Below are positions 2,876 through 22,087 of a DNA stretch of 32,000 nt, in pieces. The notes below the pieces were generated by a model. It was not told where the DNA came from. It saw only the letters and a program-made list of their open reading frames with translations, and did no database searches. This stretch comes from Abditibacteriales bacterium (lineage in GTDB: Bacteria; Armatimonadota; Abditibacteriia; Abditibacteriales; Abditibacteriaceae): the NCBI GenBank assembly GCA_038236075.1, contig JBBSTH010000003.1, positions 2,426 to 34,425 on the forward strand, given 5' to 3'. Position 1 is the stretch's first letter. Each line of letters begins with the position of its first letter. A program made the translations under genes and the position numbers.

Positions 2876-5800
2876 CTACTTCTGCTCCTTTTGATTTTTA
2901 GCCAGCCATTGCTTGAAAGTTGCGCTATCTGGTGGCACCAAACCATTGGCAGCGAACTGTTGCAAGTCAGAGAGAATAACATCAAAAAATCGCTTGCCAT
3001 GCACTTTGGTCTGCTTGTTTTGGCGGCACAGTGCGATGGCTTTATCGAGTTGATCGTTGAAGAGATAACCATGAACCAGATTAACCGCGATCCAAGATTG
3101 GTCGGGTGCCATGGCAAGACCGCGCGAGGCATCGGAGATCGCTTCTTTGGGACGATGGTAAAGCACTTCGAGATAAGCCATTTGTCCCAGCGCCGAAGCC
3201 GCCTGAGGCTGCACCTGGTCTTTAACTGGCGTGTTTTTTAGCAACTCGAATTGTTCCAAACTTTTCCGGTAAGCGGCGCGTGCGGGCAGCAAGTTCCCCA
3301 AGCTTAACTGAGCGTCGCCGATATTGGCGTAGATTTCCAGTAACTCTTGCTGAACTTGCAGATTGCCCTTGTCTTTTGCCAGGTTTTCCAGCAGCGGCAA
3401 ACTTTTAGCGAAGAGAGGCAATGACGCGGCGATTTTCCCTTGCGAAAGCGCGAGCACACCCAGACGATTCCAGCTTGTGCTGAGGTCGTGTTGCGCTTCG
3501 GCGTTACTCTTATCTTTAGCTAATTCCAGAGCAATGTTCAAACTCTTATGAAAGGTTTTGATGGCGGCATCCGTTTGATTTTGCGCCAGTTGCAATTCGC
3601 CAATGCGGTCGTAAACGGCGGATAAATCGCGGAGCGGTTCGGCTGTGGCGGTGCCATCTTTGTGGGCGCGTTTCACCAGTTCAGTCGCCAGCGGCAACGC
3701 CAAATCGTAGGCTTTTCGCGCTTTATCGTAAACCTTTTGATCGAATTGAACATCGCCACTTTTCATGGCGGTTACCAGTAAGTCGCGCTGAGCCTGTGTA
3801 TTTTCCTTGTCTTGGGCCAACACCGCGCGGATATCCCAGGCTTGTGCGTAGGCTTGTGCGGCACCTTTGTCGTCTTTGAGCAATTGCCGCACATCGCCCA
3901 TCTTTTCTAGGCTAACCGATAAATCGCGTTGAGCCGTCGGAGCGAAATCGCCGCGCGCTAAATCGGTGCGAATCGCCAGGCTTTTGGCGAAAAAGTCCTT
4001 CGCTTTTTGCAATTCGTCGGTGGCCTGATAGCTTTCGCCCATTTTTTCGTAGTTAGTTGCCAAATCGCGCCATGCACCGGGAGTTGGTTTATTCTTGGAC
4101 AGTTCCTCGGTAATAGCCAGGCTTTTTTGGTAGGCCGCGCGCGATTGACTCAGATCGCCCAAGGTCTGCCAAGTATCGCCGATACGTTGCAAGTTGACCG
4201 CTTGTTCGCGGCGCGCAGTGGGCGTTTGGGAATCCATCGCCAAAATCCGATCCAGCAGGGCGATGTTTTCCTCAAAAATCGCTTTGATGATCGGGCGACT
4301 TTCCGGGACATCGGCCAGCTTATCCGGAATTTCGTAAGTCCACTTGCCGATGGCATCCAAGGCCAATTTTTTCTGCACTGCCGTCTTTTGCCATTGAAGA
4401 TAGCTAAAAGTGCCAAAACCCGCGATCATCAGGAAAAACGTCGCCAACACGCTACTGATAATCGTCCACTTCTGGCGTCGAGCGCGTCGCACCCGTTGTC
4501 GTGAAGCCTGAATGTATTCGATGGTGTCCGAATCCAAATCGGTCAGGCGCAGACTGATCATATTTTCGGCTTCGGCCAGGGGCATACCCTCGCGCAGCAG
4601 AAAATCCGGGCGTTTATCTTCGGTCTGCCAGTGAGTGACTTCAGCGGTGATACGCGTGCGCGCGCGCAGAAAATCAATGTCGCCCACCAGCCATTCTTGA
4701 AGGCGTGGCCAGTGTCGTAGCAAGGCTTCGTGCGCCACGCGAATCACCGGCTCTGCCGCCGTGGCCCCTGTGCCCTCCGCTTCGTCTACGACCAACAAAC
4801 GGGCGTCAATGAAGGCTTTAATCAGCGTGCGCCGCGCTTCGTTGGTCACCACGCTATTTATCATTACGCGCCGCGCGGCGATGAGGGAATCGCGCTCGGT
4901 GTCAACCGTGACCAGCGCCCGCAAAACGCCCGGCAACTCTGCTTGCGCCGCCTTGGAAAGCGACTGAAAAACGGCTTCGGCACGCTCGGCCAAAGCGCCT
5001 TCCAATCCGCCCAATTGACGATAAGCCTCGAAGGTCAACACGCCTTTTTCTGTGCGGCTTTTGAAGAGTTCATCGAGAGTGAATTGCAACAGGGGCAACG
5101 CGCCGGGGTTTTTGCCAGCGGCATCGTGTAGCACATCGCTGAGGCGTTCTCCGCTGATGGGATCGACTTCAAAACGCAATCCTGCCGCGCGCGTGGGTTG
5201 AATGAGAATTTGGCCGATTTCGGCAAACGTGGGCGGCACCAAATGATATTGGCCGCTTCCTTCCTTGAGCTTCACCAAATCGGGAATTTCGGCGCAGCGA
5301 GCGTAAAAGTCACTGCGCATCGTCGCTATAATGGAAATCAGACCGCTACATGCCAAAACCGACAATACCGCAACAAAGGTTTGGCGTTCCTCTGCGCCCA
5401 GCCAATCGAGCGTGAAAATTTCCTCAAACTGATCCACCAGCAACGCCAGGCGAGCCGCTGGCACCGAAGCGAGTTGTTCCTGTTCTTGAGTCGCTAACGC
5501 CGCCTTTTCCAACGCTGCGTGCAATGAACTCACGGCGCGTTGCGGAGCTTCGCGGAGCAGAGCGGCCAACTCGGCCGCGTCCATGCCGATTTCTGGCAGG
5601 GCTTTGGGTTCGAGTAACGCCAAGGCCAGACCGTAGAGCAGATCATCGGAAGCATCGCTGGGCTTAAAAATGCTCCAACGCCACAGAGCCACGCCTTCGA
5701 CAACGCCCGGTTGAGTGAGCGTCGGCAAAACACCGGCGCGCACCAGAGACGACTTGCCGCTGCCGCTCATGCCGAAAATCATCAGGAACGAACAACCTTG

Positions 5801-7447
5801 AGCGGCATGGCGCACCAGAGCATCTCGAATCTCGCCAATGGCGCGCGTGCGCCCAAAGAAAATCGGGGCGTGTTCCATATCGAAGGCTTCCAGGCCGCGA
5901 TAGGGCGAGCCTTTGTGCCAGCGAATCGCAAAGGTGCCTTCCTCTGCGTCGGAGCTGAATTTTGGCAGGCGTTCTTTGATGAGCTTGCGCAGGTGACTTT
6001 CCAGCAATCGCTCAAATTCATCGGGCGTGGGAAAATTGTGGAAGGCGGCCTTGAACGTTTCCTGGGCGTTGCCAAACCAGCGATCAATGAAGGTATCGAG
6101 CGCCTTTTTTTGCGCGAGGCGTCCGAGCAGAGCCTCTTCATCACTCATGCTCGCCAACGGCTCGGACGATTTGCGGTAGACCATCAAATCGGGCGTGCCG
6201 CGCTCCTGGAACGAAGCCAACGCGTCCTCGAATTCCCATTCGGTGCCAGAAGAATAGAGCGTTCCATCGGAGCGCCGAAACTGTTCCGGCAAGCGCGTGC
6301 CTAACCGTGACCACAAAATACAAATCACGATGTCGGTGGAAGAAGGCGGAATGATTTGTTCTTGAAAATGGCTGGTCGCGCGCAACGGTTCGTGTTCCCA
6401 TAAAATTGGCACCAATTCCACAAAGGCCGCGAATTCGCCCTGCAAGCGTTCCACCACGCGCGTTGCAATTAAACGTTCCTGTCCCACGTCGCCGGGCGAC
6501 GAAATGAAAATTTGCAGCCTTTTCGGGGACGATTCGGCGGGTGGGGTGGACTCCTCGGCAGAAGGCTGGATTTCGGCGCGCGCTGCTACTTTTTCAATTG
6601 CAACCTCTTGAACTGAAACGCCTGTGTTATCGGATTGGGGAAGAATGTGGGCAGATGTCTCACCATCGGCATCGAGAATCGGCGTTTCCGCTTCCTCTTT
6701 ATCGAACAGTTTTTCAGCTTCGTCATGGAGAGCTTCTTCGTGCGCGATGATTTCGGCGTCTTGCTGAGAAATAACGGTCAAAGAACCAGAAACGCCGTTC
6801 GAGCCGTGAAGAGGAACCGGCAAACTTTCGGTAGGATTAACTTCCTCGTCCACATTCGGCGAAGGCAAAGCAAGCGGCGCTAATGTGACGATTTCTGGAA
6901 TGGCATTGGTATTTGAGGGTAATTCTTCAGCGGATTCTTCCGTGACCTCGCTTTCTTGGCTTGGAGCGGCGGGCAAAGCGGGAAGTTCGAGAGCGGCTTC
7001 AATTTGTGGGAAGGTTTGAGCGGGAGCAAAAATCGCGGCCACCGGGGCGCAGCAAAGGAAAATTTTGTCTTCCAGATCGTTGCGCAGCAGGCGAAATTCG
7101 TAAAAATCTACGGGTTGGGCCAGCGTTTTCTGCAAAAGCTCTTCATATTGTTCCAATGTTTCCGTAAGTCCTTCGATGCGGCTAACAACCGTTGAGGTTT
7201 GCGCGGGTGGGCAGTCCGCGAGACGCCATTCTTCCAGGCCGTTGAGTCCGAAGCGAGTCAAGGTGGCACCGTGACGCGCGAGCAGTTCTTCCAGAACCTG
7301 CCCTAATTTGGCTTGTCCTTGGGCGCGCTCTTGCAATTTCGATTCAGAGAGCCGTGCCACCTCCTCCACGAATGAGATGTAATCATCCCATTCGGTCGCT
7401 TCTGCGGGAAGCGTCTTCAATTCGTCGAGCCAGATATTCCATTTCAT
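2876..7447 (-). CDS. Giant STAND-class P-loop NTPase: N-terminal helical domain, acidic disordered linker, DUF4062/TIR-like Rossmannoid domain, nSTAND-type NTPase, one TM helix and a C-terminal TPR array
   Basis: This is the 1533-aa ORF in the track. The listed start at 7477 is TTG. I prefer the in-frame ATG at 7447 (MKWNIWLD...), which is preceded by GAGGGA 5 nt upstream. The motif IFISSPGDVGQER...DIVICILWSRLGT...SGTEWEFEDAL (track aa 320-437) resembles DUF4062. Walker A is FGMSGSGKSSLVRAGVLP; I verified nt 5750-5773 translate to GMSGSGKS. Walker B is LALLVDQFEEIF. The hydrophobic helix is WTIISSVLATFFLMIAGFGTFSYL (nt 4400-4471). About 400 aa of TPR-like repeats follow (xxLGDxxxxxGxxxxAxxxYxKSLxI). 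Confidence 0.85.
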   Translation of the reverse strand: MKWNIWLDELKTLPAEATEWDDYISFVEEVARLSESKLQERAQGQAKLGQVLEELLARHGATLTRFGLNGLEEWRLADCPPAQTSTVVSRIEGLTETLEQYEELLQKTLAQPVDFYEFRLLRNDLEDKIFLCCAPVAAIFAPAQTFPQIEAALELPALPAAPSQESEVTEESAEELPSNTNAIPEIVTLAPLALPSPNVDEEVNPTESLPVPLHGSNGVSGSLTVISQQDAEIIAHEEALHDEAEKLFDKEEAETPILDADGETSAHILPQSDNTGVSVQEVAIEKVAARAEIQPSAEESTPPAESSPKRLQIFISSPGDVGQERLIATRVVERLQGEFAAFVELVPILWEHEPLRATSHFQEQIIPPSSTDIVICILWSRLGTRLPEQFRRSDGTLYSSGTEWEFEDALASFQERGTPDLMVYRKSSEPLASMSDEEALLGRLAQKKALDTFIDRWFGNAQETFKAAFHNFPTPDEFERLLESHLRKLIKERLPKFSSDAEEGTFAIRWHKGSPYRGLEAFDMEHAPIFFGRTRAIGEIRDALVRHAAQGCSFLMIFGMSGSGKSSLVRAGVLPTLTQPGVVEGVALWRWSIFKPSDASDDLLYGLALALLEPKALPEIGMDAAELAALLREAPQRAVSSLHAALEKAALATQEQEQLASVPAARLALLVDQFEEIFTLDWLGAEERQTFVAVLSVLACSGLISIIATMRSDFYARCAEIPDLVKLKEGSGQYHLVPPTFAEIGQILIQPTRAAGLRFEVDPISGERLSDVLHDAAGKNPGALPLLQFTLDELFKSRTEKGVLTFEAYRQLGGLEGALAERAEAVFQSLSKAAQAELPGVLRALVTVDTERDSLIAARRVMINSVVTNEARRTLIKAFIDARLLVVDEAEGTGATAAEPVIRVAHEALLRHWPRLQEWLVGDIDFLRARTRITAEVTHWQTEDKRPDFLLREGMPLAEAENMISLRLTDLDSDTIEYIQASRQRVRRARRQKWTIISSVLATFFLMIAGFGTFSYLQWQKTAVQKKLALDAIGKWTYEIPDKLADVPESRPIIKAIFEENIALLDRILAMDSQTPTARREQAVNLQRIGDTWQTLGDLSQSRAAYQKSLAITEELSKNKPTPGAWRDLATNYEKMGESYQATDELQKAKDFFAKSLAIRTDLARGDFAPTAQRDLSVSLEKMGDVRQLLKDDKGAAQAYAQAWDIRAVLAQDKENTQAQRDLLVTAMKSGDVQFDQKVYDKARKAYDLALPLATELVKRAHKDGTATAEPLRDLSAVYDRIGELQLAQNQTDAAIKTFHKSLNIALELAKDKSNAEAQHDLSTSWNRLGVLALSQGKIAASLPLFAKSLPLLENLAKDKGNLQVQQELLEIYANIGDAQLSLGNLLPARAAYRKSLEQFELLKNTPVKDQVQPQAASALGQMAYLEVLYHRPKEAISDASRGLAMAPDQSWIAVNLVHGYLFNDQLDKAIALCRQNKQTKVHGKRFFDVILSDLQQFAANGLVPPDSATFKQWLAKNQKEQK

Positions 7448-7694
7448 AAATCCCTCAATTTCCTGTTTTTTGAACAAAAATTAAAAACTGCGATGGCACA
7501 ATTCACTTTTGCGTGCGTTATGTGTTATATTTTCTCTTAAGTGAGTGTTTATCGCAGTATAAATGTATTGGCAGAGAGTATTTTTGTGACAAGAAATCTT
7601 TGATGTCGAGAATTCAATTTTAAACTTGTCAATATCTTGTTTCCCCTGCCAAATATGTTTGCGCTGACTGTTTATTGTTGCCAAAAGGATTTGC
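7448..7694. promoter_or_regulatory. AT-rich divergent promoter region between the STAND gene (-) and the 7695 gene (+)
   Basis: This 247-nt non-coding gap is clearly more AT-rich than its flanks and separates two divergently oriented genes. It contains several TATAAT-like hexamers (TATAAA, TTATAT, AAATAT). No single -35/-10 pair is convincing. Confidence 0.4.
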
Positions 7695-8898: not shown

Positions 8899-9459
8899 AT
8901 GTCAGGCATCTCTCAATTTCTTCGTCCTTACCTTGTCTTAGTATTCGTGGCAGTTTGTGGAACTTTGGCTTCTTCTGCGGCTTGGGGCCAGTCAGGAGGC
9001 AATACTAACTCGCACAGTTATTTTGCCTCGGATACGAGTTTGCCGTTACCGTTTCCCCAAATTGAGCCGCCGTTGGATTTCGAGTCGTTTCCAAACGGAG
9101 TGCCCCGTCTTCCGATTACGCCAGTCAGCGAAATTCTACAAACCGATCTCCTTTCGCCCAATCTTCAGCGCACGGCTTTGGACTTCAATTCAAGCATCAA
9201 TGCATTAATGCCTTTTGCGGGGTGTGCCAACACGAATTGGGCCGCATATAACAAAGCCATTAAAATCGCCGCTCAGTTGCGAACTTCTCTTTCCGAAGAA
9301 GTTGCGGCCCAACAAAAAGCTCTGGCAAAGGACAGTTCGCCAGAGCGGATCGCGCAAGCGGAAAAAGCGGCTTTGGTCATCGAAAATACGACCACCGCAC
9401 TCGAAAAAGCGACGCAAGTTTTGGTTGATTTGGGCAAAGTATTCGACAAAGCTCGGTAA
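8899..9459 (+). CDS. Secreted hypothetical protein with a helical C-terminal half
   Basis: The track ORF starts at 8866 with TTG. The in-frame ATG at 8899 has a strong GGAGG 8 nt upstream and yields a clean signal peptide, MSGISQFLRPYLVLVFVAVCGTLASSAAWG. Stop TAA at 9457-9459. Confidence 0.6.
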   Translation: MSGISQFLRPYLVLVFVAVCGTLASSAAWGQSGGNTNSHSYFASDTSLPLPFPQIEPPLDFESFPNGVPRLPITPVSEILQTDLLSPNLQRTALDFNSSINALMPFAGCANTNWAAYNKAIKIAAQLRTSLSEEVAAQQKALAKDSSPERIAQAEKAALVIENTTTALEKATQVLVDLGKVFDKAR

Positions 9460-9475
9460 CTGAACCGCTAATTTT

Positions 9476-9526
9476 ACAAAAGCCAACGGCCTTGCGTCAT
9501 TCTGACGCAAGGCCGTTGGCTTTTGT
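9476..9526. terminator. Bidirectional rho-independent terminator between convergent genes
   Basis: This is a perfect inverted repeat, ACAAAAGCCAACGGCCTTGCGTCA-ttc-TGACGCAAGGCCGTTGGCTTTTGT. The GC-rich stem is flanked by an A-tract on one side and a T-tract on the other. It lies 17 nt after the stop at 9459 (+) and 28 nt after the stop at 9554 (-). Confidence 0.8.
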
Positions 9527-9553
9527 AACTCGCTTTTTCGCAGAAGCCAGTGT

Positions 9554-10354
9554 TCAACCGTTGCAATCGCACTTCCGGCTCGGCGGAGTGGCTTTAGAAG
9601 AGGACGCCGACGACGGCACCATTTGAGCCTGAGATTGCAACTGGATTGGGCCTAAGAGTCCTGCCTGTCCCTCCAGAGAAATGCTTTCCACCTTTGCAGC
9701 AGCGTCAAAGGTAGGTTGCAGCTCTTTGTTGGGAGTGGGACTCTCCAACGCCTTGCGCCACTCCAGCAGCGGACTCAAGTTCGGCACTGCCGAGGGGGCC
9801 GACGGAGGAGAACCGGGATAAACGGTGCTTTGCTGAGATTCGTGGACCAGCACATCGCCACAGGGATTATAAATTTCCACGGTGCCTTCGATGACCGTCA
9901 CAGTCGTGGTGCCATCATCAGCGACATCAAGTAAGAATTCGGTGCCCTTAACGCGCATCAGAGCAGTGCGCGTTGCCACGATCCTACCGGGTTGAAGCCG
10001 AACCGCCATTCGTCCCTGCAAAGCTCGAAAAAGTGGTTTTCCTTTACCTGCGGAACCGTTTGCCGTTATTTCAATTGAGGCGCCGGAGTTCATTTCCACC
10101 CGCGAACCATCTTTAAAACGCAAAGAGGTGCGGACGCCTTTGGGCGACACGACAACATCGCCCGCATAAACACGGTCGTTGGCGCGCAACTGAGTTGTGG
10201 TGCGGACACCCTTGCGCTGCACTAAGACATTGCCAGTTACGGTGCCAACAGGTTCAGGGGCTGCCCAACCGCTGTAGAACAGAGTTGAGCCTCCACCTGC
10301 GATCAGGCACATTACTGCTGCCTGTGCGAAGTAATTTTGTCGAGAAACTCTCAT
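9554..10354 (-). CDS. FecR-domain secreted/periplasmic protein
   Basis: ATG at 10354 is preceded by AAGGAAAAC. There is an N-terminal hydrophobic signal (AQAAVMCLIAGGGSTLF). The central pattern is FecR-like: L..NDRVYAGDVVVS..GVRTSLRFKDGSRVEMNSGASIEI...MRVKGTEFLLDV...TVTVIEGTVEI. Confidence 0.7.
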   Translation of the reverse strand: MRVSRQNYFAQAAVMCLIAGGGSTLFYSGWAAPEPVGTVTGNVLVQRKGVRTTTQLRANDRVYAGDVVVSPKGVRTSLRFKDGSRVEMNSGASIEITANGSAGKGKPLFRALQGRMAVRLQPGRIVATRTALMRVKGTEFLLDVADDGTTTVTVIEGTVEIYNPCGDVLVHESQQSTVYPGSPPSAPSAVPNLSPLLEWRKALESPTPNKELQPTFDAAAKVESISLEGQAGLLGPIQLQSQAQMVPSSASSSKATPPSRKCDCNG

Positions 10355-10553
10355 GTTTTCCTTGGAAGCAACTGAGACGACATCACAGCAATTGATAATT
10401 CAATGCTATAAGTTCAGCATACCAGATATAGTCAGGCAAATGCGCCTGTATCAGAAAATTTTGGAGATTTTAATTGCTTTGTTTTAATTTTATGTAACAA
10501 TATGAATTGACATTCTCTATACAGACAATCTACTGCAACGTCACCTAAAATTG

Positions 10554-12563
10554 CTATCCGGCGTGTGGCACTTCGAGTGGGCGTTCGCGGTGCAACATCA
10601 CCCAGTCGCCATTTTCGGCCAGGGCTTCGCGGCCCAGTTCGTGAAGCAAGGTCGAAGTCTTATGGGAGTGTCCCACCGACAGTTGGGCTTCGAGTTCCTG
10701 GCAAGCGGTTTCAAAGAGTGTGCCCATGCGTCCGTAGCGTTTGGAATGTTCGGCGCGCGCCATCAGCGCATTATATCCGTGCAGCAAACCGGCGGTGACG
10801 GCGAGCATCACGATACAAATCATGATTAGAGCGTGCGTGAGCGGCACTTCGACCATCGCTTTGAACGGCTCCAGCAACGGTAGCGGCAAAAGAGAGGGCA
10901 ATGTCAGCAGTAACCCAAGCGCAACCGACAACGCGATGCTGGCGACGACCAAAGCGCCGATCAGTTTTTCCTGTTTCTCTAACTCGTGGTGTTCGCGGTG
11001 CGCTTTGCTCACATAGTAATTGCGTTGATCTTGTGCCCAACTCTGCACGATCAGCGACAACGGTGCGGATGTGTGAGGCGCCGACTTTTGCTGCGCATCA
11101 GCCAGCACGTTGCAGCTTTTAATGGCGTGACGAATCCAGTTGAGTTCGCCGCGCTGTTTGCCCAGATAATGATCGCTCACGTCGTCGCGCAGACCCGCCA
11201 AACGCCAGTAAATCTGCACGCGCAACCCTTCGGCCAGGGCGCGGTAATCTTGATATTTGGTTTGTAACTCTTGCTTTTCGGTGCGTCCGTGCAACACGAC
11301 ATTGACGACCACTAAAAGAAGATAAAGCCATAAAAACCAGGGCAGCAACGACCATAACGACGCCAGCGAAAAGCCACCGTGCGATTCATCGGATGTTTCG
11401 ACAGGGAGAATTTCTCCGTGCGTCTCAGATACCGTGGGGGCGGCGTGGCTGGTGCTGCCGTGTTCGGCAGTAGCGGGCACATCGGCACCAATTGCAGCTT
11501 CGTGTTCCGTTGGTGAGGTAACAGCAGATGTCGCGTGTGAGGAATTCCCGGTTTCGTGATGAGTGCCGTGCGGCAGCGAGTGAAACAGGTTGAAACTCAA
11601 CGCGGCAAAAAACACGAGCAGAAAGACTCGTCGCGTAGCGTGCGCCATTTGGCGCGCGAAAACGCTCGACATCGCGTCCGACCAGCCGTAAATGGTCATC
11701 GGAAAACGCAGATTATCGGGAATCTCCGTGTTGCTAGCGGTTTCCGCGTTGTCGGCGGACGCGATGAGATAGTTCGCATTGCGCTGGGCGCTATCGCCCA
11801 GGGTCGCTCGCAGTTTTTGAACGTCGGCATTGAAAGCATCAATGCGACTAAAATCTTCTGCGGCTTCTGCGTTGGGTTTGATGTGAAGCGAGAAGGGTTC
11901 GCCCGCGCCTGCGGACAAGGGGCGCGACTGGCGCGGTGTCACGAGATGATGGACGGCGCCATATCCGGCGCGTTCGAGCGGCGAAATCACCGGCCCGTAG
12001 GGCGGCGGCGCGCCGTGCAAGCGCAAGCGCACGATATGTGCGGTGCCTCCGGTGCGCTCGTGTTCGGGCAAGTCGTCACCGTCCCACAGCGCCAGCAAAA
12101 TGTGGCTGTAACGCGCCAGATATGCGCCCATTGCGGCGTATTGCCCCTCGATTTGCGCTTGGGTTAGTTCGCCCGCAGCCATGCGATTTTCCTCCTCGCT
12201 GCCCGCCACCCAAGGCAAGGTAAACACTTCGCTGGCGCGTTCGAGCAAACCGGCAAATTCGGCGCGCGATTCGTCACTGCTGAAACTCTTTTCATACTGT
12301 TGACGTGGCAAGGGCAAGGGCACGATCAAGGCACAGCCTTCTTCCAGTGCTACGCACGCGATAAGGCGGTCGGCGCCCTCGCCCAGAGGAGAAAGCACGA
12401 TGAGCGGCGTGTGAGGATAGCGCGCGCGAAACGCGCGCAGTTCGCGCCGCACAACCTCGCGTAGCGGCTCGATGTCTTGCGGGCGCAAATCGCTGTGGCC
12501 GGTGATGCCCACGAAAAGCGGCAACAGATCAGAAGGCAAATCGGCGGAAGAGGAAGGAGTCAT
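10554..12563 (-). CDS. SLOG-like Rossmannoid (putative nucleotide-sensor) domain fused to two 2TM hairpins (SLATT-like putative membrane effector)
   Basis: 669-aa ORF with ATG at 12563. Residues 14-210 show a strand/helix pattern: FVGITGH, LSPLGEGADRLIACVAL, ALIVPLPL and ILLALWDGD...TGGTAHIV. This resembles SLOG/LOG/YpsA-type folds, where the GGT loop corresponds to the PGGxGT loop of LOG. Four hydrophobic helices lie at aa 311-330, 401-425, 534-555 and 575-597. Each pair is followed by an amphipathic helix (KYQDYRALAEGLRVQIYW; ARAEHSKRYGRMGTLFE), as in SLATT/DUF4231-type modules. The CDS call is strong. The domain assignment is inference. Confidence 0.8.
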   Translation of the reverse strand: MTPSSSADLPSDLLPLFVGITGHSDLRPQDIEPLREVVRRELRAFRARYPHTPLIVLSPLGEGADRLIACVALEEGCALIVPLPLPRQQYEKSFSSDESRAEFAGLLERASEVFTLPWVAGSEEENRMAAGELTQAQIEGQYAAMGAYLARYSHILLALWDGDDLPEHERTGGTAHIVRLRLHGAPPPYGPVISPLERAGYGAVHHLVTPRQSRPLSAGAGEPFSLHIKPNAEAAEDFSRIDAFNADVQKLRATLGDSAQRNANYLIASADNAETASNTEIPDNLRFPMTIYGWSDAMSSVFARQMAHATRRVFLLVFFAALSFNLFHSLPHGTHHETGNSSHATSAVTSPTEHEAAIGADVPATAEHGSTSHAAPTVSETHGEILPVETSDESHGGFSLASLWSLLPWFLWLYLLLVVVNVVLHGRTEKQELQTKYQDYRALAEGLRVQIYWRLAGLRDDVSDHYLGKQRGELNWIRHAIKSCNVLADAQQKSAPHTSAPLSLIVQSWAQDQRNYYVSKAHREHHELEKQEKLIGALVVASIALSVALGLLLTLPSLLPLPLLEPFKAMVEVPLTHALIMICIVMLAVTAGLLHGYNALMARAEHSKRYGRMGTLFETACQELEAQLSVGHSHKTSTLLHELGREALAENGDWVMLHRERPLEVPHAG

Positions 12564-12607
12564 AAATTTTTAGTGATAGCGAGTTAATTCTCAGACTTTG
12601 GTGCGTT

Positions 12608-14386
12608 TCAATCTGCGGCAGTTTCTTCAACAGAAGCATTGAGACGAAGCACCTGAAAACCGGCACCGGCCAGAAACGCCGGAATCGCGCGCACGACATT
12701 GCGATTCCAGTCGCGCATATTCTCGGGTAATTCATCCCACGTCACCAAATTCGGGTTGGTTCTGCGTTGATTATCGCGCGGCCCGGTTTTCCAGCCCGTT
12801 GCCAACCGTTCTTTCGTCCAGCGAGTGTGTTCCAATTTTGCCATGAGTTCAACTTCGGCGGGCGTAAATTCGTGAGTGCGTGCGTCCCAATCCCACAGCG
12901 GCGCAATGTCGCAGCCGATGGCCGCCAACTTTTCGCCGATGTGCAACGCCTGCGCGCGATTCGATTCGCGCGCTTCTTCAGGCAACTCGTCCCACGGCAC
13001 CAAAAGCCCGTTGGAGCCAGTTTGTGCGGCTTCTTCTTGATCTTCCAGATAGCGTTCGTGGAGCGCGCGCGCCAACAATTCCGGCACTCCGCCCAACACC
13101 AAATCGGGTTGACAGGCACGCTCCATCAATCCCAGCGCGTGTAGCGTTTCAAAGCGCCGACCGGAGCCACGAATTTCGCGCAGCAATGAAGTTAGTCCCG
13201 AGTCCTCCTGCATCGCAGCCACGACGGGCACACCCGTCACGCGTAAACGCCCGTGCAACGCCAGTGCTGCCGCCAAACTCGCCGCGTCATCGGGCAAGCA
13301 GACGTAAACCCGCGAAACGCACGGCTCGCCGTCTTCATCGAACAAAAACTGAGCGCGATGGAACTCTGGATCGCCTGCATCGAGCGAGAGCGTGGACAAC
13401 TCACACGTTGCGCTCAGTTCGGGATGGCGCAGATGCAACAGTTCGGCAATCCGTTCGGCGTTGCGGTCTATGAGCAGACAACGCAATTTCTCGCGCTCTT
13501 GCGGAGGCGATGACTGGGGCGCATCATGCCAGGCGCGCGCGCTGTGGACGAGCAAACTGCGCCCCAGCCGGCCCGCTCCCACGATGAGCAGCTGCGGAGC
13601 GCCTGACGCGGGCAGCGAAAACGCCGGATGTTCGTCGAGCAAGGCGCGCGCGGCAGAGTCCACCAGATTGAAGAATTGTAGGCGAAACGAGCCGCTTGCG
13701 GAGATTTCCCATTCGCGCAAAAGCGCCCACAGGTCGGCGTCCACGATGTGAACGCTGCACACCAACGGATCGCCCGAAGGGCGCCGCGTCGCGCAATCGC
13801 GGGCGCGCGCGGCGATTTCGGCGTTGATGCCATCGTCGCCGCATAAGGCGATCACCGTCTGCGCGCGCGCGATACCCGCGTTTTCCAGAAGAATACGCTC
13901 GCGCGGATCGCCCAACAGCACAATCGCGCCCAACTCGCGCGCGACTGGCACGAAATCGTTGTTTTCGTCGCTTTCCAGGGCCACGACCTGCACGCCGCGC
14001 TCGCAAAAAGCGCGCACCAAAAGCAAGCCGCGTTTGTCCAGTCCACAGACGATGATGTGATGTTTGAAACGGCGCAGACGGAGTTGTTGCCAGCCGTCGC
14101 CCCGCACCAGAAACGAAGCAATGGCCGCGGTTAAAAACGAGAGCGCGCCGATGCCCGCGAACATCAAAAACAGCGCGATCAAGCGCCCGCCCAACGTGCG
14201 CGGAAATACGTCGCCATAACCGATGGTCGTTACCGTCACCATCGCCCACCAGAAGCTGTCCCACAACGAAAGTTGAGGCGAAACCGGCTTCTCGAAGTGA
14301 TAAAATCCCAGCGCGCACGCCACGACCAAAACCATCAACGCGCCCAAAATGGCGGCGACAAGCGAGTTTTTACCCGGTTTGTTCAT
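12608..14386 (-). CDS. 2TM K+ channel fused to an RCK/TrkA-N domain, a second Rossmann-like domain and two C-terminal RyR (ryanodine-receptor repeat) domains
   Basis: ATG at 14386. The selectivity filter is VTVTTIGYGDVFP; I verified nt 14210-14230 translate to TTIGYGD. Hydrophobic helices flank it. The RCK motif is HIIVCGLDKRGLLLVRAF..GVQVVALESD. The second GxGxxG motif is LLIVGAGRLGRSLL. Two RyR-like repeats follow: LARALHERYLEDQ...LVPWDELPEEARESNRAQALHIGEKLAAIG and MAKLEHTRWTKERLATGWKTGPRDNQRRTNPNLVTWDELPENMRDWNRNVVRAIP. Confidence 0.9.
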   Translation of the reverse strand: MNKPGKNSLVAAILGALMVLVVACALGFYHFEKPVSPQLSLWDSFWWAMVTVTTIGYGDVFPRTLGGRLIALFLMFAGIGALSFLTAAIASFLVRGDGWQQLRLRRFKHHIIVCGLDKRGLLLVRAFCERGVQVVALESDENNDFVPVARELGAIVLLGDPRERILLENAGIARAQTVIALCGDDGINAEIAARARDCATRRPSGDPLVCSVHIVDADLWALLREWEISASGSFRLQFFNLVDSAARALLDEHPAFSLPASGAPQLLIVGAGRLGRSLLVHSARAWHDAPQSSPPQEREKLRCLLIDRNAERIAELLHLRHPELSATCELSTLSLDAGDPEFHRAQFLFDEDGEPCVSRVYVCLPDDAASLAAALALHGRLRVTGVPVVAAMQEDSGLTSLLREIRGSGRRFETLHALGLMERACQPDLVLGGVPELLARALHERYLEDQEEAAQTGSNGLLVPWDELPEEARESNRAQALHIGEKLAAIGCDIAPLWDWDARTHEFTPAEVELMAKLEHTRWTKERLATGWKTGPRDNQRRTNPNLVTWDELPENMRDWNRNVVRAIPAFLAGAGFQVLRLNASVEETAAD

Positions 14387-14410
14387 AATTTCGACGGCGC
14401 GCTTGCGCCG

Positions 14411-14552
14411 TTAAAACTTATGCAGCAAGAGAACCCGGAGCGGCAGCGACATGGCTTACAGTGCGACGTGGCTTACTGCACACAAGGCCAACTCCCCTGA
14501 CTTCGTCGGGTGCCCGCTTCCGCTCCGGGTTCTCTTGCTGATTAAGTTTTAA
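14411..14552. repeat. 142-nt long inverted repeat (33-nt arms, 76-nt core) in the intergenic leader of the K+ channel gene; structured RNA element or MITE-like insertion
   Basis: Arm 14411-14443 (TTAAAACTTATGCAGCAAGAGAACCCGGAGCGG) pairs with arm 14520-14552 at 31 of 33 positions, with one 2-nt internal mismatch. Pairing extends 4 bp further (14445-14448 / 14515-14518). The core carries a 14-nt direct repeat, GCGAC(A/G)TGGCTTAC, at 14446-14459 and 14463-14476. Confidence 0.8.
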
Positions 14553-14638
14553 ACAGTTCTCTCCAAGCAAACAAAAGCCGTTGGATGCGCGCCTTTTGCG
14601 CTGGTCTTCCACTCCCGAAATCGCGCCGATTCCCTGCT

Positions 14639-15526
14639 CTACTCGTCCAGCATTTTTATCGCTTGTTTCAGACTCCGTTGCATCCGGTTGAACGAGCTGG
14701 AAAGCATGGCGATTTCATCTTTGCCGTTGACTGGTAAATCTTCGACTTCCAAATTGCCTTTGGAAATTTCGTCCGCTGAGCGCGCCAATTGTTTGACCGG
14801 TGCCACAACAACACTGCGCAACATCAGGTTTAAAATCAGCAGCGTTAACAGCAAAATTCCCGCGAGTGCGCCCATCATAAGGCCCGTGATTTTGCGCGCG
14901 ATTTGTTCGGGAATGCCGACAGGCACCGAAACGATTTGCGCTCCGATGACCGAGTGCAATTTCCAGTTGAAACCGTTTTTCGAGCCGTAATCGTGAATCA
15001 TGGAAGCGGGCGCGACATTGGGTGTGCTATGGCAACTCAAGCACGACTGTTGCGTGACGCGGAGCGGGCGCGACATATAAAAGTAACGGCCTTTCGGCGT
15101 ATCGCGCAAACCGACGACCTCTTTGAGATTACCGTTTTTCTGGAAACTCTTGATGATGCTGGCTTCCCAGTCCACCGCCAAATCTTTGGTGTTGGTTGGG
15201 TTGAGCGTGGCCTCACGATAAAAATAATCGGGATAACGCTCCTGCATATAAGAAAAAACTTTTTGTGACGAAAACGCGGGAACGGTTTCGGGCACGAACT
15301 TGCCGTTGCGTTGCGACGGCAAAATCGGTTTGATTTGGTTCGAGGTATATTTGCGAACGGCGAGCGCATTTTCCATCATCAGGCGCGCATTGCCGGTCAC
15401 GATCTGACGCGCTTGTTGTTGCAACAAGGCATTGAAAACCGTCCCCGCGCCTACAATGCTCACCGCGAATACCACGAAGAAAACCAGATTGAACTTGGAC
15501 GCCAGGCGCCAGGAAGAAAAATTCAT
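14639..15526 (-). CDS. Membrane-anchored DUF3365 (Tll0287-like c-type heme) sensor domain plus HAMP domain, with no output domain
   Basis: The track start at 15565 is GTG. I prefer the in-frame ATG at 15526 (MNFSSWRLASKFNLVFFVVFAVSIVGAG, a signal anchor). The heme-c motif CLSCH is verified at nt 15029-15043. A second TM helix is ITGLMMGALAGILLLTLLILNLML. The HAMP motif is VVAPVKQLARSADEISKGNLEVEDLPVNGKDEIAMLSSSFNRMQRSL. The protein ends 8 aa after HAMP. Confidence 0.8.
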   Translation of the reverse strand: MNFSSWRLASKFNLVFFVVFAVSIVGAGTVFNALLQQQARQIVTGNARLMMENALAVRKYTSNQIKPILPSQRNGKFVPETVPAFSSQKVFSYMQERYPDYFYREATLNPTNTKDLAVDWEASIIKSFQKNGNLKEVVGLRDTPKGRYFYMSRPLRVTQQSCLSCHSTPNVAPASMIHDYGSKNGFNWKLHSVIGAQIVSVPVGIPEQIARKITGLMMGALAGILLLTLLILNLMLRSVVVAPVKQLARSADEISKGNLEVEDLPVNGKDEIAMLSSSFNRMQRSLKQAIKMLDE

Positions 15527-15624
15527 AGGAAAGAGAAAGAAGATGAGGTCACTATCGAATGGCACGCAGTTGTAAATCGAAAAGAAGCAGCGAAAGCTCG
15601 CTCGAAAGGTTTGACATTGGGCGA

Positions 15625-16557
15625 TTAAACGCGTTCTTCCTTCAAGAATACCTCGCGTTCCTCTGGCGTGGGCAGATTTTTGGCGAGCAAAATGTAAAGT
15701 TCGTTCACGTCTCTGGCTTTTTTGGATGCGCGTTTCACCAGCAAACGGGAGAGCGGCCCCATGTGAACCGCAAATTGGCGTTCGATTTTTTGCAAGACGA
15801 CTTCATCCCACACTTTTTCGCCAGTGGGCGTGGCTGATGGTGTCGCAGGGAGCGCCGTTGGCACGCCGAATAAAAGTGTCGTTGTTTCCAGAAAACGGGC
15901 GCGTTCGTCTTCTTTGGTGATGGAATGGCTCACCATTTGGCAAAGCGCGGCGCCATTGAACGTTTTCAGCGCACTCTGATGCACGATGACGCGGGCCATT
16001 GGGCCAATATAAAACGCCAGTTCGCGTTCGATGCGGCGCAAGGTATCGGGATTCCACCCTTCGCTTTCCTTTTTCCCCTCCGCATCGAGCGACTCAACGG
16101 GTTCAATTCCCCCTTCTTCGAGGAGCAACACGCTCTCTGTTTGTTCAGGTTCGGTGCATTGCAGCAGAGCGTGAATAGTTTTGGCGAGCCGTTCCAAATG
16201 CGCTTCGAGCGGCGGACTGAGCGCATCCAACCAGTGCGGCGTGCCGATGAAGTAACGCATATGCTTGGAGAGCGCCACGTCTTCTAAACGAAACGGCACG
16301 ATGGACAAACCTTCGGAGACTGCGTTTTGCACTTCGCGCTTGACCTGCTCGGAGATATTGGACGACGACGACAACAACAGCACGAACACGCGCGCAGAAG
16401 TGATTCCGTCAATAATGGCGTCACTCCAATCCTGGCCGGGCGTCACGTCGCGTGGCGCGATCCAGCAGCGAACACCGCGCGCTTCGAGCGTGCCGCACAC
16501 CGCGTCTGCCGTCAGTTTGTCCTGGTGAGCGTAGGAAATAAATACATCGAGCGACAT
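15625..16557 (-). CDS. TIR-domain protein with two tandem ~60-aa C-terminal helical repeats
   Basis: ATG at 16557. The N-terminus is a textbook bacterial TIR (TIR_2-like): DVFISYAHQDKLTADAVCGTLEARGVRCWIAPRDVTPGQDW..AIIDGITSARVFVLLLSSSSNISEQVKREVQNAV..GLSIVPFRL. The C-terminal repeats are WNPDTLRRIERELAFYIGPMARVIV...DERARFLE and WDEVVLQKIERQFAVHMGPLSRLLV...EEREVFLK. Confidence 0.9.
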   Translation of the reverse strand: MSLDVFISYAHQDKLTADAVCGTLEARGVRCWIAPRDVTPGQDWSDAIIDGITSARVFVLLLSSSSNISEQVKREVQNAVSEGLSIVPFRLEDVALSKHMRYFIGTPHWLDALSPPLEAHLERLAKTIHALLQCTEPEQTESVLLLEEGGIEPVESLDAEGKKESEGWNPDTLRRIERELAFYIGPMARVIVHQSALKTFNGAALCQMVSHSITKEDERARFLETTTLLFGVPTALPATPSATPTGEKVWDEVVLQKIERQFAVHMGPLSRLLVKRASKKARDVNELYILLAKNLPTPEEREVFLKEERV

Positions 16558-16599
16558 GAGAAACTTCGCCGGTTACGCGCGAGCGAAAACGACGTTAAT

Positions 16600-16881
16600 T
16601 TATTTGGCGATGCGAAACCCCATTGCCAACATGGTTTTGATGACCTGTTGCGCCACAACGCGATCATAATCTTTCTCGCTTTCGGAAAGCTCTTCGTAAG
16701 GCACAAGTCCCGGATGCTCTTTACGTTGATCGTCTCGATGCGGCCCATAGAGCCAACCGTCATCCAGACGTTGTTTTGCCCACACCTCGTGGGTATTAAT
16801 GGCGATTTCCTCCAGCAAAGCGGCGATTGATTCATCCAATTCGATATGGGAAGTATCAATCGGAGTAGGAATGTAACGCAT
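16600..16881 (-). CDS. Stand-alone RyR-domain protein (about 93-100 aa)
   Basis: The sequence ...LLEEIAINTHEVWAKQRLDDGWLYGPHRDDQRKEHPGLVPYEELSESEKDYDRVVAQQVIKTMLAMGF matches the RyR-repeat consensus (HE.W...R...GW.yG......k.hP.lvpY.eL.e.eK..dR). The start is ambiguous: ATG at 16881 (used here) or in-frame GTG at 16902 (track). Confidence 0.8.
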   Translation of the reverse strand: MRYIPTPIDTSHIELDESIAALLEEIAINTHEVWAKQRLDDGWLYGPHRDDQRKEHPGLVPYEELSESEKDYDRVVAQQVIKTMLAMGFRIAK

Positions 16882-16916
16882 GAAATTAGGCGCTTTTGGC
16901 ACAGCAATCCCTCTAA

Positions 16917-16945
16917 AATTTACTCTGCCTGTGGTCTCCTTTCAA
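16917..16945 (-). promoter_or_regulatory. Candidate sigma70-type promoter for the RyR/TIR cluster
   Basis: On the minus strand there is TTGAAA (16945-16940), a 17-nt spacer and TAAATT (16922-16917). This would place the transcription start about 5-10 nt upstream of the GTG at 16902 and about 27 nt upstream of the ATG at 16881. Confidence 0.35.
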
Positions 16946-17000
16946 CATTTTGACGATTTTCGGGCCAACCCAGTTGTGGCACGATCTCACACGATTCCCT

Positions 17001-17774
17001 TTAGTCATTCATGGATTGGCAACGCACTAACGCATTTTGCATCGCTTCGGGGTGAACGGCCAAATCGCCGGTAAAGGCGTAGTTGAGCGCGCTGATGAGA
17101 AAAAGCACCAGAGCAATTATGATGGCGAGCAAACTCGTCATGGCGGCTTGAGTCTGAAATCGCTCTATGCCAAAGAAGAACGTGAAGGCGATGGTTGCCA
17201 TGCCGCCCAGAATCAACACGACCCACATCGGGCCGGGCACTCCACTGCGACTCGCCAGCAAGCGCAAGCGCCGGTTGTCGCCGACGTCGGTGAGACGGTC
17301 GAGAATTTGAGCCATCAGCACCGATTCAGTGGGAGTCAAACGCGATTTTTGAGTGCAACTGGCCCACAGCGCATCCAATGCGATCGAGGTGCCGTCATCT
17401 GACTGGCCCTGTGTCATCAGCGGCCATTCATTTTGCACCACGCGACGCGCGTATTGCGCTGACTTGGCACGCAATTCCTCTTTAAAGGGCGCTTGAAATC
17501 CCGTTGATAACCGGCAAACATCAACAATGGCGTTGGCCTCGCGCGCGGCGACGATTTCGGCAGCACCGTATCGTTCCCACACCACGAGCACCACAAAAGC
17601 CAACACCACCGCATAAATAACACCCACAATCGCCAGAATAAAACCTGCGACATCGTGATGTTGGCGCAAAGCGAGCGGCGAAGTGCGTGCGCGCACCAGC
17701 GCCAGACCGCCCACAGAAAACAACAGCGCGACGACCGTAATCGTCACGCATAGTAGCCATAAAGGTAATACCAA
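17001..17774 (-). CDS. DUF4239 / bestrophin-like membrane protein
   Basis: The protein has an N-terminal TM helix and a second TM helix followed by ...VVWERYGAAEIVAAREANAIVDVCRL..., where EANAI is the hallmark I associate with DUF4239. Two C-terminal TM helices follow. The start codon at 17774 is TTG, and no in-frame ATG lies near the N-terminus. Confidence 0.6.
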   Translation of the reverse strand: MVLPLWLLCVTITVVALLFSVGGLALVRARTSPLALRQHHDVAGFILAIVGVIYAVVLAFVVLVVWERYGAAEIVAAREANAIVDVCRLSTGFQAPFKEELRAKSAQYARRVVQNEWPLMTQGQSDDGTSIALDALWASCTQKSRLTPTESVLMAQILDRLTDVGDNRRLRLLASRSGVPGPMWVVLILGGMATIAFTFFFGIERFQTQAAMTSLLAIIIALVLFLISALNYAFTGDLAVHPEAMQNALVRCQSMND

Positions 17775-17803
17775 AATTGAATTTTTTCTCCATTCAATTC
17801 AAA

Positions 17804-17839
17804 GATGCGCCCAATCTCAAATCAGAGATTGGGCGCATC
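17804..17839 (-). terminator. Rho-independent terminator after the AGE-like gene
   Basis: A perfect 15-bp stem, GATGCGCCCAATCTC / GAGATTGGGCGCATC, has a 6-nt loop. It lies 22 nt downstream of the TAA at 17862-17864. On the minus strand it is followed by TTTGAATTGAAT. Confidence 0.7.
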
Positions 17840-17861
17840 CTGCATTGTCAGACCGCACGAT

Positions 17862-19742: not shown

Positions 19743-19769
19743 GGTGTTGATTGTGGGATTGTGGGATTA

Positions 19770-22052: not shown

Positions 22053-22087
22053 GATCGTTGGTGGAAAACTAGCGAGCAAAAGAAATG

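Follow-up and report, generated by a model that had tools for sequence, protein, structure and literature searches.

A gene of 669 codons in an Abditibacteriales bacterium (assembly GCA_038236075.1, contig JBBSTH010000003.1) encodes a protein in which an N-terminal SLOG domain is followed by two tandem SLATT membrane modules. It lies on the minus strand of a 32,000-nucleotide stretch of that contig (positions 2,426 to 34,425), referred to here as the window, to which all unprefixed coordinates refer. The gene is real, conserved, and very widespread, and it has no name. The link of its family to genes for TIR-domain proteins is likewise real, and on balance the SLOG-2xSLATT protein is probably a membrane effector that answers a TIR-made signal in a form of nucleotide signaling like that of the Thoeris systems. 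Proteins with ryanodine receptor (RyR) repeats, the SLOG subtype found here, tandem SLATT modules, and TIR domains form a recurrent network of neighbors and fusions, and the company of RyR proteins is the more valuable lead. The gene and its parts are arranged as follows.

10554..12563, minus strand: SLOG-2xSLATT gene, 669 amino acids, ATG start, intact open reading frame (ORF), AlphaFold2 (AF2) model with a predicted local distance difference test score (pLDDT) of 85.9
11874..12524, minus strand: SLOG domain, residues 14-230, a predicted cytoplasmic nucleotide-binding sensor (Foldseek and invariant motifs)
11166..11717, minus strand: SLATT module 1, with transmembrane helix TM1 (~311-331), an outer loop, TM2 (~403-425), and the conserved helix YQDYRALAEGLRVQ (DUF4231/SLATT_3)
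11370..11570, minus strand: disordered insert rich in His, Ser, Thr, and Glu, residues 332-398 (67 residues), in the outer loop of hairpin 1 (pLDDT <50)
10674..11060, minus strand: SLATT module 2, with TM3 (~534-556), TM4 (~575-597), and the helix AEHSKRYGRMGTLFE (SLATT_1 in homologues; hydropathy)
10557..10667, minus strand: conserved C-terminal helix and tail, predicted to be cytoplasmic (ELGREALAENGDWVMLHRERPLEVPHAG; conservation in alignment A1)

The breadth of the family is evident from searches at several scales. A word-indexed search returned 856 homologues at E<=1e-3, and a full hidden Markov model (HMM) scan of 1.84 billion cluster representatives (50%-identity clusters) returned 11,164 at the same threshold, with 8,411 of these remaining at E<=1e-10 and 3,772 at E<=1e-30; almost all are 560-720 amino acids long and aligned end to end. 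The nearest relatives of the 669-residue protein are Abditibacteriota proteins of 58-68% identity. Among species-representative genomes the family occurs in at least 520 species, from phyla that include Abditibacteriota, Acidobacteriota, Verrucomicrobiota, Planctomycetota, Ignavibacteriota, Bacteroidota, Spirochaetota, Armatimonadota, Chloroflexota, Nitrospirota, and Proteobacteria, among others. Pfam, NCBIfam, and PADLOC hold no dedicated model for it. No relative was found in the phage genomes searched, and the plasmids yielded a single distant one, present in two Caballeronia records, where it is annotated as a “DUF4231 domain-containing protein” and a TIR gene follows it.

Conservation was scored on an alignment of 47 diverse family members (A1). 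Within the N-terminal domain (N-domain), G22, H23, D30, G63, D65, W160, G172, G173, and T174 are invariant in 47/47 sequences. Further invariant residues follow hairpin 1 (R441, A442, A444, E445, R448, and W453) and hairpin 2 (M613), and others fall at the C terminus (L648, W654, H658, and R659), where E646, A647, E650, N651, D653, E660, and R661 reach 90% conservation or more. A first-pass annotation, made by a model from the sequence of the window, had described a SLOG-like sensor fused to two membrane hairpins and had quoted several short motifs and two amphipathic helices in its support. The ORF and all of these elements are present, with GITGH at residues 19-23, GEGADRLIA at 61-69, WDGD at 160-163, TGGTAHIV at 171-178, YQDYRALAEGLRVQIYW at 437-453, and AEHSKRYGRMGTLFE at 604-618; the motifs it selected are conserved ones that contain invariant residues of the alignment.

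The assignment of the N-domain to the SLOG fold, also made in that annotation, agrees with the predicted structure. The full-length AF2 model built with the family alignment (pLDDT 85.9; predicted TM-score (pTM) 0.85) is disordered only in residues 1-6 and 341-398, and a model of the N-domain alone (pLDDT 85.5) has core strands at residues 16-22, 54-57, 78-83, 112-115, and 155-160 that alternate with helices, giving a Rossmannoid α/β fold with a five-stranded core sheet. Its best match in the PDB by Foldseek is YpsA of Bacillus subtilis (2nx2; E 3.3e-6, TM-scores 0.54/0.69), after which come ShosA, DprA, a molybdenum cofactor (MoCo) carrier protein, LOG enzymes, and TM1055. The eight matches at E<=1e-3 all belong to the SLOG superfamily (YpsA, ShosA, DprA, and MoCo carrier), and 18 of the top 19 are members of it or close structural relatives, TM1055 being the exception; TRPM4 appears among the lower-ranked matches. 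The order of matches is unchanged when the full-length model is the query. Gly-rich ligand loops are present in the form of G22-H23 after strand 1 and of G172-G173-T174 after the last core strand, the usual SLOG “GGT” loop, and the invariant G63-A64-D65 after strand 2 corresponds to the GxD/E motif that is regarded as the substrate-binding signature of the YpsA clade of SLOG domains (PMC6459960). YAcAr, a SLOG family of Pfam, is the sole curated SLOG sequence model matched, in every case below threshold (16 of the 47 members, best E 3.4e-5; E 0.028 for the 669-residue protein). The modeled fold and these motifs lead us to class the N-domain as SLOG, in an uncatalogued subfamily whose nearest relative is YpsA.

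The definitions of SLOG and SLATT reportedly trace to Burroughs et al. 2015 in Nucleic Acids Research (NAR). Four hydrophobic segments of transmembrane type, at residues ~311-331, 403-425, 534-556, and 575-597 on the Kyte-Doolittle scale, coincide with long AF2 helices in the C-terminal part of the protein and agree with the two hairpins that had been described there. The likeness of these hairpins to SLATT/DUF4231 modules, also noted at first pass, is upheld by homologues that score above the Pfam cutoffs. In them hairpin 1 reaches 27.6 bits with SLATT_3 (cutoff 26.3) and 28.5 bits with DUF4231 (cutoff 24.7), and the equivalent of hairpin 2 reaches 27.8 and 28.0 bits with SLATT_1 (cutoff 26.3) in the homologues P0077 and P0081. 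Matches to DUF4231 occur in 31 of the 47 members, to SLATT_3 in 11, and to SLATT_1 in 7; the 669-residue protein itself matches DUF4231 at residues 404-452 (E 2.2e-4) with 22 bits, under the 24.7 cutoff. The profile of a SLATT domain, a two-transmembrane-helix (2TM) hairpin followed by a helix, is found at the level of the family, and at that level profile matching clearly identifies the four helices as two SLATT modules, hairpin 1 being SLATT_3/DUF4231-like and hairpin 2 SLATT_1-like. Because the modules match different families and not each other, they are best described as two different SLATT modules in tandem rather than as a recent duplication. Internal duplication of the hairpins was considered but is not shown, as an hhalign comparison of module 1 with module 2 was colinear but nonsignificant (E 0.05, probability 1%).

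Because the protein has no signal peptide and its N-domain is soluble, the predicted topology is N-in, which would place the SLOG domain, the helical region between the hairpins, and the conserved C-terminal tail in the cytoplasm. The disordered insert of hairpin 1 would then face outward. In alignment A1 an insert of this kind (60-100 residues) is confined to Abditibacteria- and Verrucomicrobia-type members, and its richness in His suggests metal binding.

The TIR link was evaluated in a sample of 80 species-level loci, in which ORFs were searched with iterated HMMs seeded with the TIR, RyR, and channel proteins of the window. The TIR counts that follow are lower bounds, as a CAP12-type TIR-STING protein escaped the HMM. 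The gene that supplied the TIR seed is the following.

15625..16557, minus strand: TIR-domain protein, 310 amino acids, the presumed signal generator (Pfam TIR_2 5.1e-22; E75 at the position of the catalytic Glu)

TIR-containing proteins form the largest cluster of neighbors of the family. Of the 80 loci, 24 carry a TIR ORF no more than 500 bp from the family gene, 35 carry one within 3 kb, and 38 within 10 kb. The density of TIR ORFs per 100 kb falls from 16.9 at less than 1 kb to 5.3 at 1-3 kb, 1.7 at 3-5 kb, and ~0.2 at 5-10 kb, an enrichment of ~50-fold or more in the adjacent 1 kb relative to the 5-10 kb interval. Where at least 5 kb of sequence is available on both sides (48 loci), 28 have a TIR gene within 3 kb. 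The position of the catalytic Glu (E75 in the window) is kept in 45 of 47 neighboring TIR domains. The TIR partners come in at least five architectures, among them TIR+DUF8082, an 837-amino acid ThsB_TIR protein, TIR-kinase, kinase-TIR, TIR-TPR, and TIR-WD40. In many loci, then, the operon or neighborhood of the family gene includes a TIR gene that keeps the catalytic Glu, one of the features of Thoeris in the broad sense, and the association of SLATT with a nucleotide-signal generator (TIR) or a SLOG domain is likewise found. The strong enrichment of TIR genes nearby supports a logic in which a TIR signal passes through a SLOG sensor to a membrane output, and the firm placement of the family in TIR neighborhoods makes it a concrete candidate for a further Thoeris-type effector.

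Two loci show further arrangements of these genes. A Blastocatellia metagenome-assembled genome (MAG) has paralogous SLOG-SLATT genes (568 and 585 amino acids) on either side of one 306-amino acid TIR gene (L033:6829-11692), and a Pelotomaculum MAG (L090:1015-4372) has the order [solo RyR, 99 amino acids][CAP12-type TIR + prokaryotic STING, 355 amino acids][SLOG-SLATT, 587 amino acids]. In the latter the TIR-STING protein, normally an effector of CBASS (a system of antiphage signaling based on cyclic oligonucleotides), occupies the slot expected of the TIR signal generator.

The RyR domains of the locus, which the first-pass annotation overlooked, occur in two proteins, one a channel encoded beside the SLOG-2xSLATT gene and the other a small protein encoded beside the TIR gene.

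12608..14386, minus strand: K+ channel (filter TTIGYGD) with RCK/TrkA_N and tandem RyR, 592 amino acids, upstream operon partner (Pfam)
12650..13084, minus strand: RyR (R12-type) repeats of the channel, residues 435-494 and 512-579 (iterated HMM 9.5e-21 and 7.6e-31)
16600..16902, minus strand: solo RyR-domain protein, 100 amino acids, with H38/W41/H63/D80 (Pfam RyR, PF02026, 9.5e-34)

The channel protein, which has no PADLOC or NCBIfam model, is recognized by Pfam through Ion_trans_2 (3.5e-19), TrkA_N (3.6e-15), and RyR (2.3e-14). Its gene is 44 bp upstream of the SLOG-SLATT gene on the same strand, and in other phyla the two often overlap by 4 bp; such pairs are found in Abditibacteriota, Verrucomicrobiota, Acidobacteriota, Armatimonadota, and Nitrospirota. 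Channel-RyR proteins are the second largest cluster of neighbors (18/80 loci), and a TIR gene is also present in 15 of these 18, the flanks of the other three being too short. The first-pass annotation had read the locus as a two-gene system of TIR and effector. Such plain [TIR][SLOG-SLATT] operons do exist (L022, L037, and L045), but in the present clade the conserved partner is the K+ channel-RCK-RyR protein, and it is a solo RyR gene that stands beside the TIR gene. That solo gene is directly upstream of the TIR gene in the window, and similar solo genes occur in six other loci. Its product scores 68 bits against the R12 repeat of animal RyR2 and 8.2e-31 against 3nrt.

A possible role for these domains comes from phage proteins. 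“RyDEP” proteins of phages, which contain an R12-type RyR domain (PF02026), cleave the ribose-ribose bond of 2'/3' cyclic ADP-ribose (cADPR) or bind the molecule with nanomolar affinity; their ligand residues are H75, W78, H100, and D117, with H75 and D117 forming the catalytic dyad (PMC13232231). The corresponding residues of the solo RyR protein, H38, W41, H63, and D80, are invariant in seven solo homologues, and their spacing (+3, +25, and +42) is exactly that of RyDEP, the mapping being based on this identity of spacing and on the text of the paper and not on an alignment with a RyDEP sequence. The channel repeats match PF02026 as well, with the second His and the catalytic Asp replaced by Asn: repeat 2 keeps the His and the Trp and has Asn at both other ligand positions, and repeat 1 has His, Tyr, Asn, and Asn. 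This pattern of residues suggests that the channel is a binder and the solo protein a possible hydrolase or sponge.

The RyR association was also examined independently, in 80 metagenome loci anchored on solo-type RyR genes rather than on SLOG-SLATT. Of the 59 solo RyR ORFs in these loci, 19 have a TIR gene within 3 kb, the distance being 500 bp or less for 13 of them. A SLOG-SLATT gene accompanies 9 of the 59 at up to 5 kb, and a larger channel-like ORF (>400 amino acids) that bears RyR accompanies 8 over the same range. Pairs of the form [solo RyR][SLOG-SLATT] separated by 1 bp occur in L107, L124, L129, and L130.

Several individual loci show further combinations of these domains. The order [solo RyR, 146 amino acids][tandem SLATT without SLOG, 373 amino acids][TIR, 436 amino acids] is found at L150:6842-9821, where the sensor of this same tandem-SLATT effector may be the RyR protein in place of SLOG. 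Fusions of RyR, TPR-S, SLOG, and a class III cyclase (751-758 amino acids) are encoded at L142:6983-9238 and L144:2540-4816, the cyclase being matched by Pfam (Guanylate_cyc) for L142 only. Their RyR domains carry the full H/W/H/D set, and their SLOG domain is of the same subtype as the N-domain described here (hhalign probability 87%, E 3.7e-6), with the GH, GAD, WDG, and GGT motifs in common. The L144 fusion gene is 93 bp downstream of a TIR-WD40 gene, an arrangement that suggests conversion of a TIR signal to a cyclic-nucleotide signal. A further fusion, P0221, joins RelA_SpoT and RyR to LSDAT_prok, a SLOG domain. Two proteins of 2TM-TrkA_N-RyR type lack the canonical K+ filter; one lies beside RelA_SpoT+RyR and NUDIX genes (L093:3979-8740), and the other adjoins a TIR-WD40 gene at a locus from which the SLOG-SLATT gene is absent (L094:7001-12116).

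How these parts might work together can be outlined on the model of Thoeris signaling. Upon a trigger, the TIR protein would turn NAD+ into a signal derived from ADP-ribose (ADPR), such as a cADPR isomer or a relative. The signal would be bound in the SLOG pocket formed by the G22-H23 loop, G63-x-D65, and G172-G173-T174, and binding would cause the tandem SLATT helices to oligomerize or open, so that the inner membrane is breached or depolarized and growth arrest or death follows. The RyR repeats of the channel, which lack the catalytic Asp, probably sense the same or a related molecule, in which case opening of a K+ path by the channel would provide an additional output in parallel with the first. 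With its full H/W/H/D set, the solo RyR protein probably buffers or destroys the signal and would set a threshold or act as an off-switch. The complete scheme, in which host R12-type RyR domains are parts of TIR signaling (as the gate of a channel and as a solo buffer or hydrolase) alongside a SLOG-gated SLATT pore, is offered tentatively, as a possibility that is more doubtful than the effector role of the SLOG-2xSLATT protein itself.

A number of observations weigh against the reading of this protein as a TIR-answering effector. No ThsA structure is found among the top 50 Foldseek matches of either model, the PADLOC ThsA models do not match the 669-residue protein, and its GxD motif fits the YpsA clade; because of the first two results, the description “ThsA-like,” which the first-pass annotation had applied to the receptor, is valid at the level of the superfamily only. 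A profile of the N-domain (A2) searched against all PDB sequences gave chance-level matches to TIM and SspA proteins and no solved SLOG, and the full protein had no match in the same sequences; because the profile search gave nothing, membership in the SLOG superfamily rests on fold and motifs. Directly adjoining the invariant G22-H23 loop, the 669-residue protein has S24 (TGHSD; codon 12492-12494, minus strand) in place of the Arg (TGHRD) found in at least 90% of family members, and this change may alter the specificity for the ligand or weaken the sensor. The pairing of a TIR gene with a SLOG-effector gene, on which the first-pass annotation relied, holds for the family in that TIR is its most frequent neighbor, but the two genes of the window are not adjacent: the TIR gene lies 3 kb upstream of the SLOG-SLATT gene, on the same strand, and two other genes separate them. 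Neither a TIR nor an RyR gene lies within 5 kb in 18 of the 48 well-flanked loci (~37%), and many members from Ignavibacteria and Bacteroidota are found amid housekeeping genes. For the RyR components, the comparison with RyDEP is one of residue spacing. Finally, “SLOG and 4TM” proteins encoded beside TIR are listed as putative Thoeris effectors by Yirmiya et al. 2025 (bioRxiv Dec 2025, Table S1/S2), and the two examples, from Streptomyces sp. GKU 895 and Candidatus Nitrospira nitrosa COMA1, both gave no defense in E. coli, their membership in the SLOG-2xSLATT family being unconfirmed.

The genes that surround the block add a further point of this kind and bear directly on what the system is for.

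14639..15565, minus strand: Tll0287-like protein (haem motif CLSCH, c-type) with HAMP and no output domain (Pfam 1.9e-41 and 3e-14)
17001..17774, minus strand: bestrophin-like membrane protein, 257 amino acids (Pfam 8.6e-59; same position in L001 and L003)
17862-22181, minus strand: isoamylase (GlgX-like) and N-acetylglucosamine (GlcNAc)-2-epimerase-like genes
2876-7477, minus strand: DUF4062 (TIR-like) + nSTAND1 NTPase + TPR protein, 1533 amino acids, 3 kb downstream of the SLOG-SLATT gene

The isoamylase and epimerase-like genes flank the block of TIR, channel-RyR, and SLOG-SLATT genes in 9-10 loci (L012, L013, L019-L021, L024, L032, L035, and L092), the epimerase-like gene carrying a STAS domain in Acidobacteriota. 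Synteny of this extent in both Abditibacteriota and the Vicinamibacterales (Acidobacteriota) is unusual for a mobile defense island. A larger block may have been transferred, or the system may be tied functionally to the physiology of carbohydrates or osmotic balance; a role in physiological signaling accounts for the synteny at least as well as a mobile defense island does, and perhaps better. One of these loci, L024, is organized nearly identically to the Vicinamibacterales loci L019 and L020 and comes from a MAG whose label, “Bifidobacterium breve,” looks wrong, probably through an error of binning or contamination. In five Abditibacteria-type loci the Tll0287-HAMP gene is conserved at the place where it separates the TIR gene from the channel gene, and its product might be the input sensor of the system; the bestrophin-like gene is a conserved upstream gene in Abditibacteria, its membership in the system being uncertain. 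The large DUF4062-nSTAND1-TPR protein is a STAND protein typical of conflict systems, and on the same side relatives of the locus encode caspase-PEGA, TIR-TPR, and CHAT-TPR proteins. A scan of 9400-18000 for promoters and terminators gave chance-level counts, and operon structure is not defined by it.

These surroundings raise the alternative that the module is physiological rather than antiviral, with a TIR-made messenger of the ADPR type tuning ion fluxes through the K+ channel, the bestrophin-like protein, and a SLATT pore under osmotic, desiccation, or carbon-storage stress, much as cADPR acts on RyR and ADPR on TRPM2 in eukaryotes. The metabolic synteny just described in Abditibacteria and Acidobacteriota speaks for it, as do the bestrophin-like and Tll0287-HAMP sensor genes inside the gene string, the lack of phage matches and near lack of plasmid matches, the absence of the family from PADLOC, and the nature of the partner TIRs, which are large fusions with kinase, TPR, or WD40 and not small ThsB proteins. 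This alternative is nevertheless unlikely in view of the conflict-type genes on either side of the block or its relatives (in the window DUF4062-nSTAND1-TPR, elsewhere caspase, CHAT, and TIR-TPR), the wide variety of partner TIR architectures, which is typical of defense systems, and the fact that SLATT and TIR have so far been characterized in conflict systems only.

The SLOG domain might alternatively be an enzyme, an N-glycosidase or other processing activity acting on a nucleotide or on the TIR product as LOG-type SLOG domains do, with the four-helix part serving mainly as an anchor or regulator. H23, D30, and D65 are invariant beside the Gly-rich loops, LOG and other enzymatic SLOG proteins are among the structural matches, and SLOG domains have been proposed to process ADPR derivatives (PMC9503650). 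The nearest structural relatives, YpsA, DprA, and ShosA, are however binders and not hydrolases of the LOG type, the LOG motif PGGxGTxxE is incomplete (the sequence is GGTAxIV, with no Glu), and the strong conservation of the SLATT helices and cytoplasmic segments points to the membrane part as a functional output, all of which makes an enzymatic role quite improbable. It is very doubtful, finally, that SLOG-SLATT belongs to the RyR-K+ channel as an accessory or regulatory subunit, in a single TIR-independent complex gated by NAD+/NADH or ADPR, for although gene overlaps of the translational-coupling type in several phyla, the RCK/TrkA_N domain of the channel (a classic sensor of NAD(H) and nucleotides), and [solo RyR][SLOG-SLATT] pairs with no TIR within 7 kb (L107 and L124, with full 7-kb flanks; likewise L129 and L130, with one flank shorter, 1.8 and 3.3 kb) would suit such a complex, about three-fourths of the sampled species have no channel neighbor, many of these have an adjacent TIR gene, and every channel-bearing locus with enough flank has a TIR gene.

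With a TIR-answering membrane effector retained as the preferred reading, the question is how far the system differs from those already described. The architecture of SLOG, SLATT, and TIR is not new, and the gene is a member of a predicted but unvalidated kind. A SLOG effector with a membrane output, put forward in the first-pass annotation as a departure from the known type, is already implied by the Pfam definition of SLATT as the “SMODS and SLOG-associating 2TM effector domain” and by the “SLOG and 4TM” listing (Yirmiya et al. 2025), and TIR-SLATT neighborhoods have been described (PMC9503650). The “SLOG and 4TM” candidate, represented by IMG genes 2862473379 and 2691454910, has the same labeled architecture, is adjacent to TIR, and is a predicted effector of TIR signals; the likeness is one of label, homology being unconfirmed. 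Its TIR domains are not close to those of the 80 loci, and no RyR or channel partner is described for it. Identity with it was sought through the published TIR domains and not established, since their best BLAST match to the loci was only 30% and their closer homologues (55-64%) are on short contigs, of which the single usable one has no SLOG-4TM neighbor. In the literature searched there is no description of conserved operonic coupling to a K+ channel with RyR repeats, of solo RyR proteins that carry the RyDEP residue set and are encoded by the host within TIR loci, or of RyR/TPR-S/SLOG/cyclase fusions. It is in the recurrence of channel-RyR and solo RyR proteins with TIR, this SLOG subtype, and tandem SLATT that the value of the lead lies, as the loci propose a role for host RyR-domain proteins, that of receptor and off-switch. 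If the scheme is true, it would extend TIR signaling to ligand-gated ion channels, explain the RyR domains of phages as stolen host regulators, and provide both a simple bacterial model for ligand binding by ryanodine receptor repeats and a tractable system for the long-disputed direct action of cADPR-type ligands on them.

Comparison with the characterized systems shows how familiar elements are recombined here. In type VII Thoeris, the SLATT effector ThsH responds to canonical cADPR (10.64898/2025.12.03.692087) and has been modeled to bind it between SLATT protomers, and SLATT effectors, those of CBASS as well as those of type VII Thoeris, are proposed to compromise the membrane. The protein described here resembles ThsH and the CBASS/SMODS-associated SLATT proteins (Burroughs et al. 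2015) in its presumed use of 2TM SLATT modules as a membrane effector responsive to a nucleotide signal, with TIR nearby, but it differs from ThsH, as described a SLATT protein without SLOG, in that a dedicated SLOG domain precedes a tandem of two unlike SLATT modules. With ThsA of type I Thoeris (SIR2-SLOG) it shares a SLOG domain that is the presumed receptor of a TIR-made ADPR derivative and is fused to an effector. In ThsA, however, the SLOG domain, which binds 3'cADPR, is C-terminal and the output is NAD+ depletion, whereas here SLOG is N-terminal and the output would be at the membrane; Pfam, NCBIfam, and PADLOC detect no SIR2 domain in the 669-residue protein. YpsA is the best structural match and has the GxD/E signature in common, but it is a small soluble regulator of cell division with 18% identity over the Foldseek alignment and no match at the HMM level.

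The RyR components can be compared in the same way. The solo RyR protein and the phage RyDEP proteins (Lopez Rivera et al., bioRxiv May 2026) have identical residue spacing and both belong to PF02026, but RyDEP is a phage antidefense protein, whereas the RyR domains here come from host genes of a TIR locus, one of which joins them to a K+ channel. The use of an ion channel as output for signaling of the TIR or ADPR type has parallels in type X Thoeris, which consists of TIR and an ion channel (10.64898/2025.12.03.692087), and in TRPM2 and RyR; relatives of the type X Thoeris TIR on plasmids were of type II (TIR + Macro) in 4/4 inspected loci. In the eukaryotic proteins, TRPM carries a SLOG-like N-domain and RyR carries R12 repeats, each fused to a cation channel, whereas the bacterial locus joins SLOG to SLATT hairpins and places the RyR repeats on a 2TM K+ channel, so that a single bacterial operon would, if the scheme is true, contain counterparts of both eukaryotic channel sensors of the ADPR family, the R12 repeats of RyR and the TRPM-type SLOG domain.

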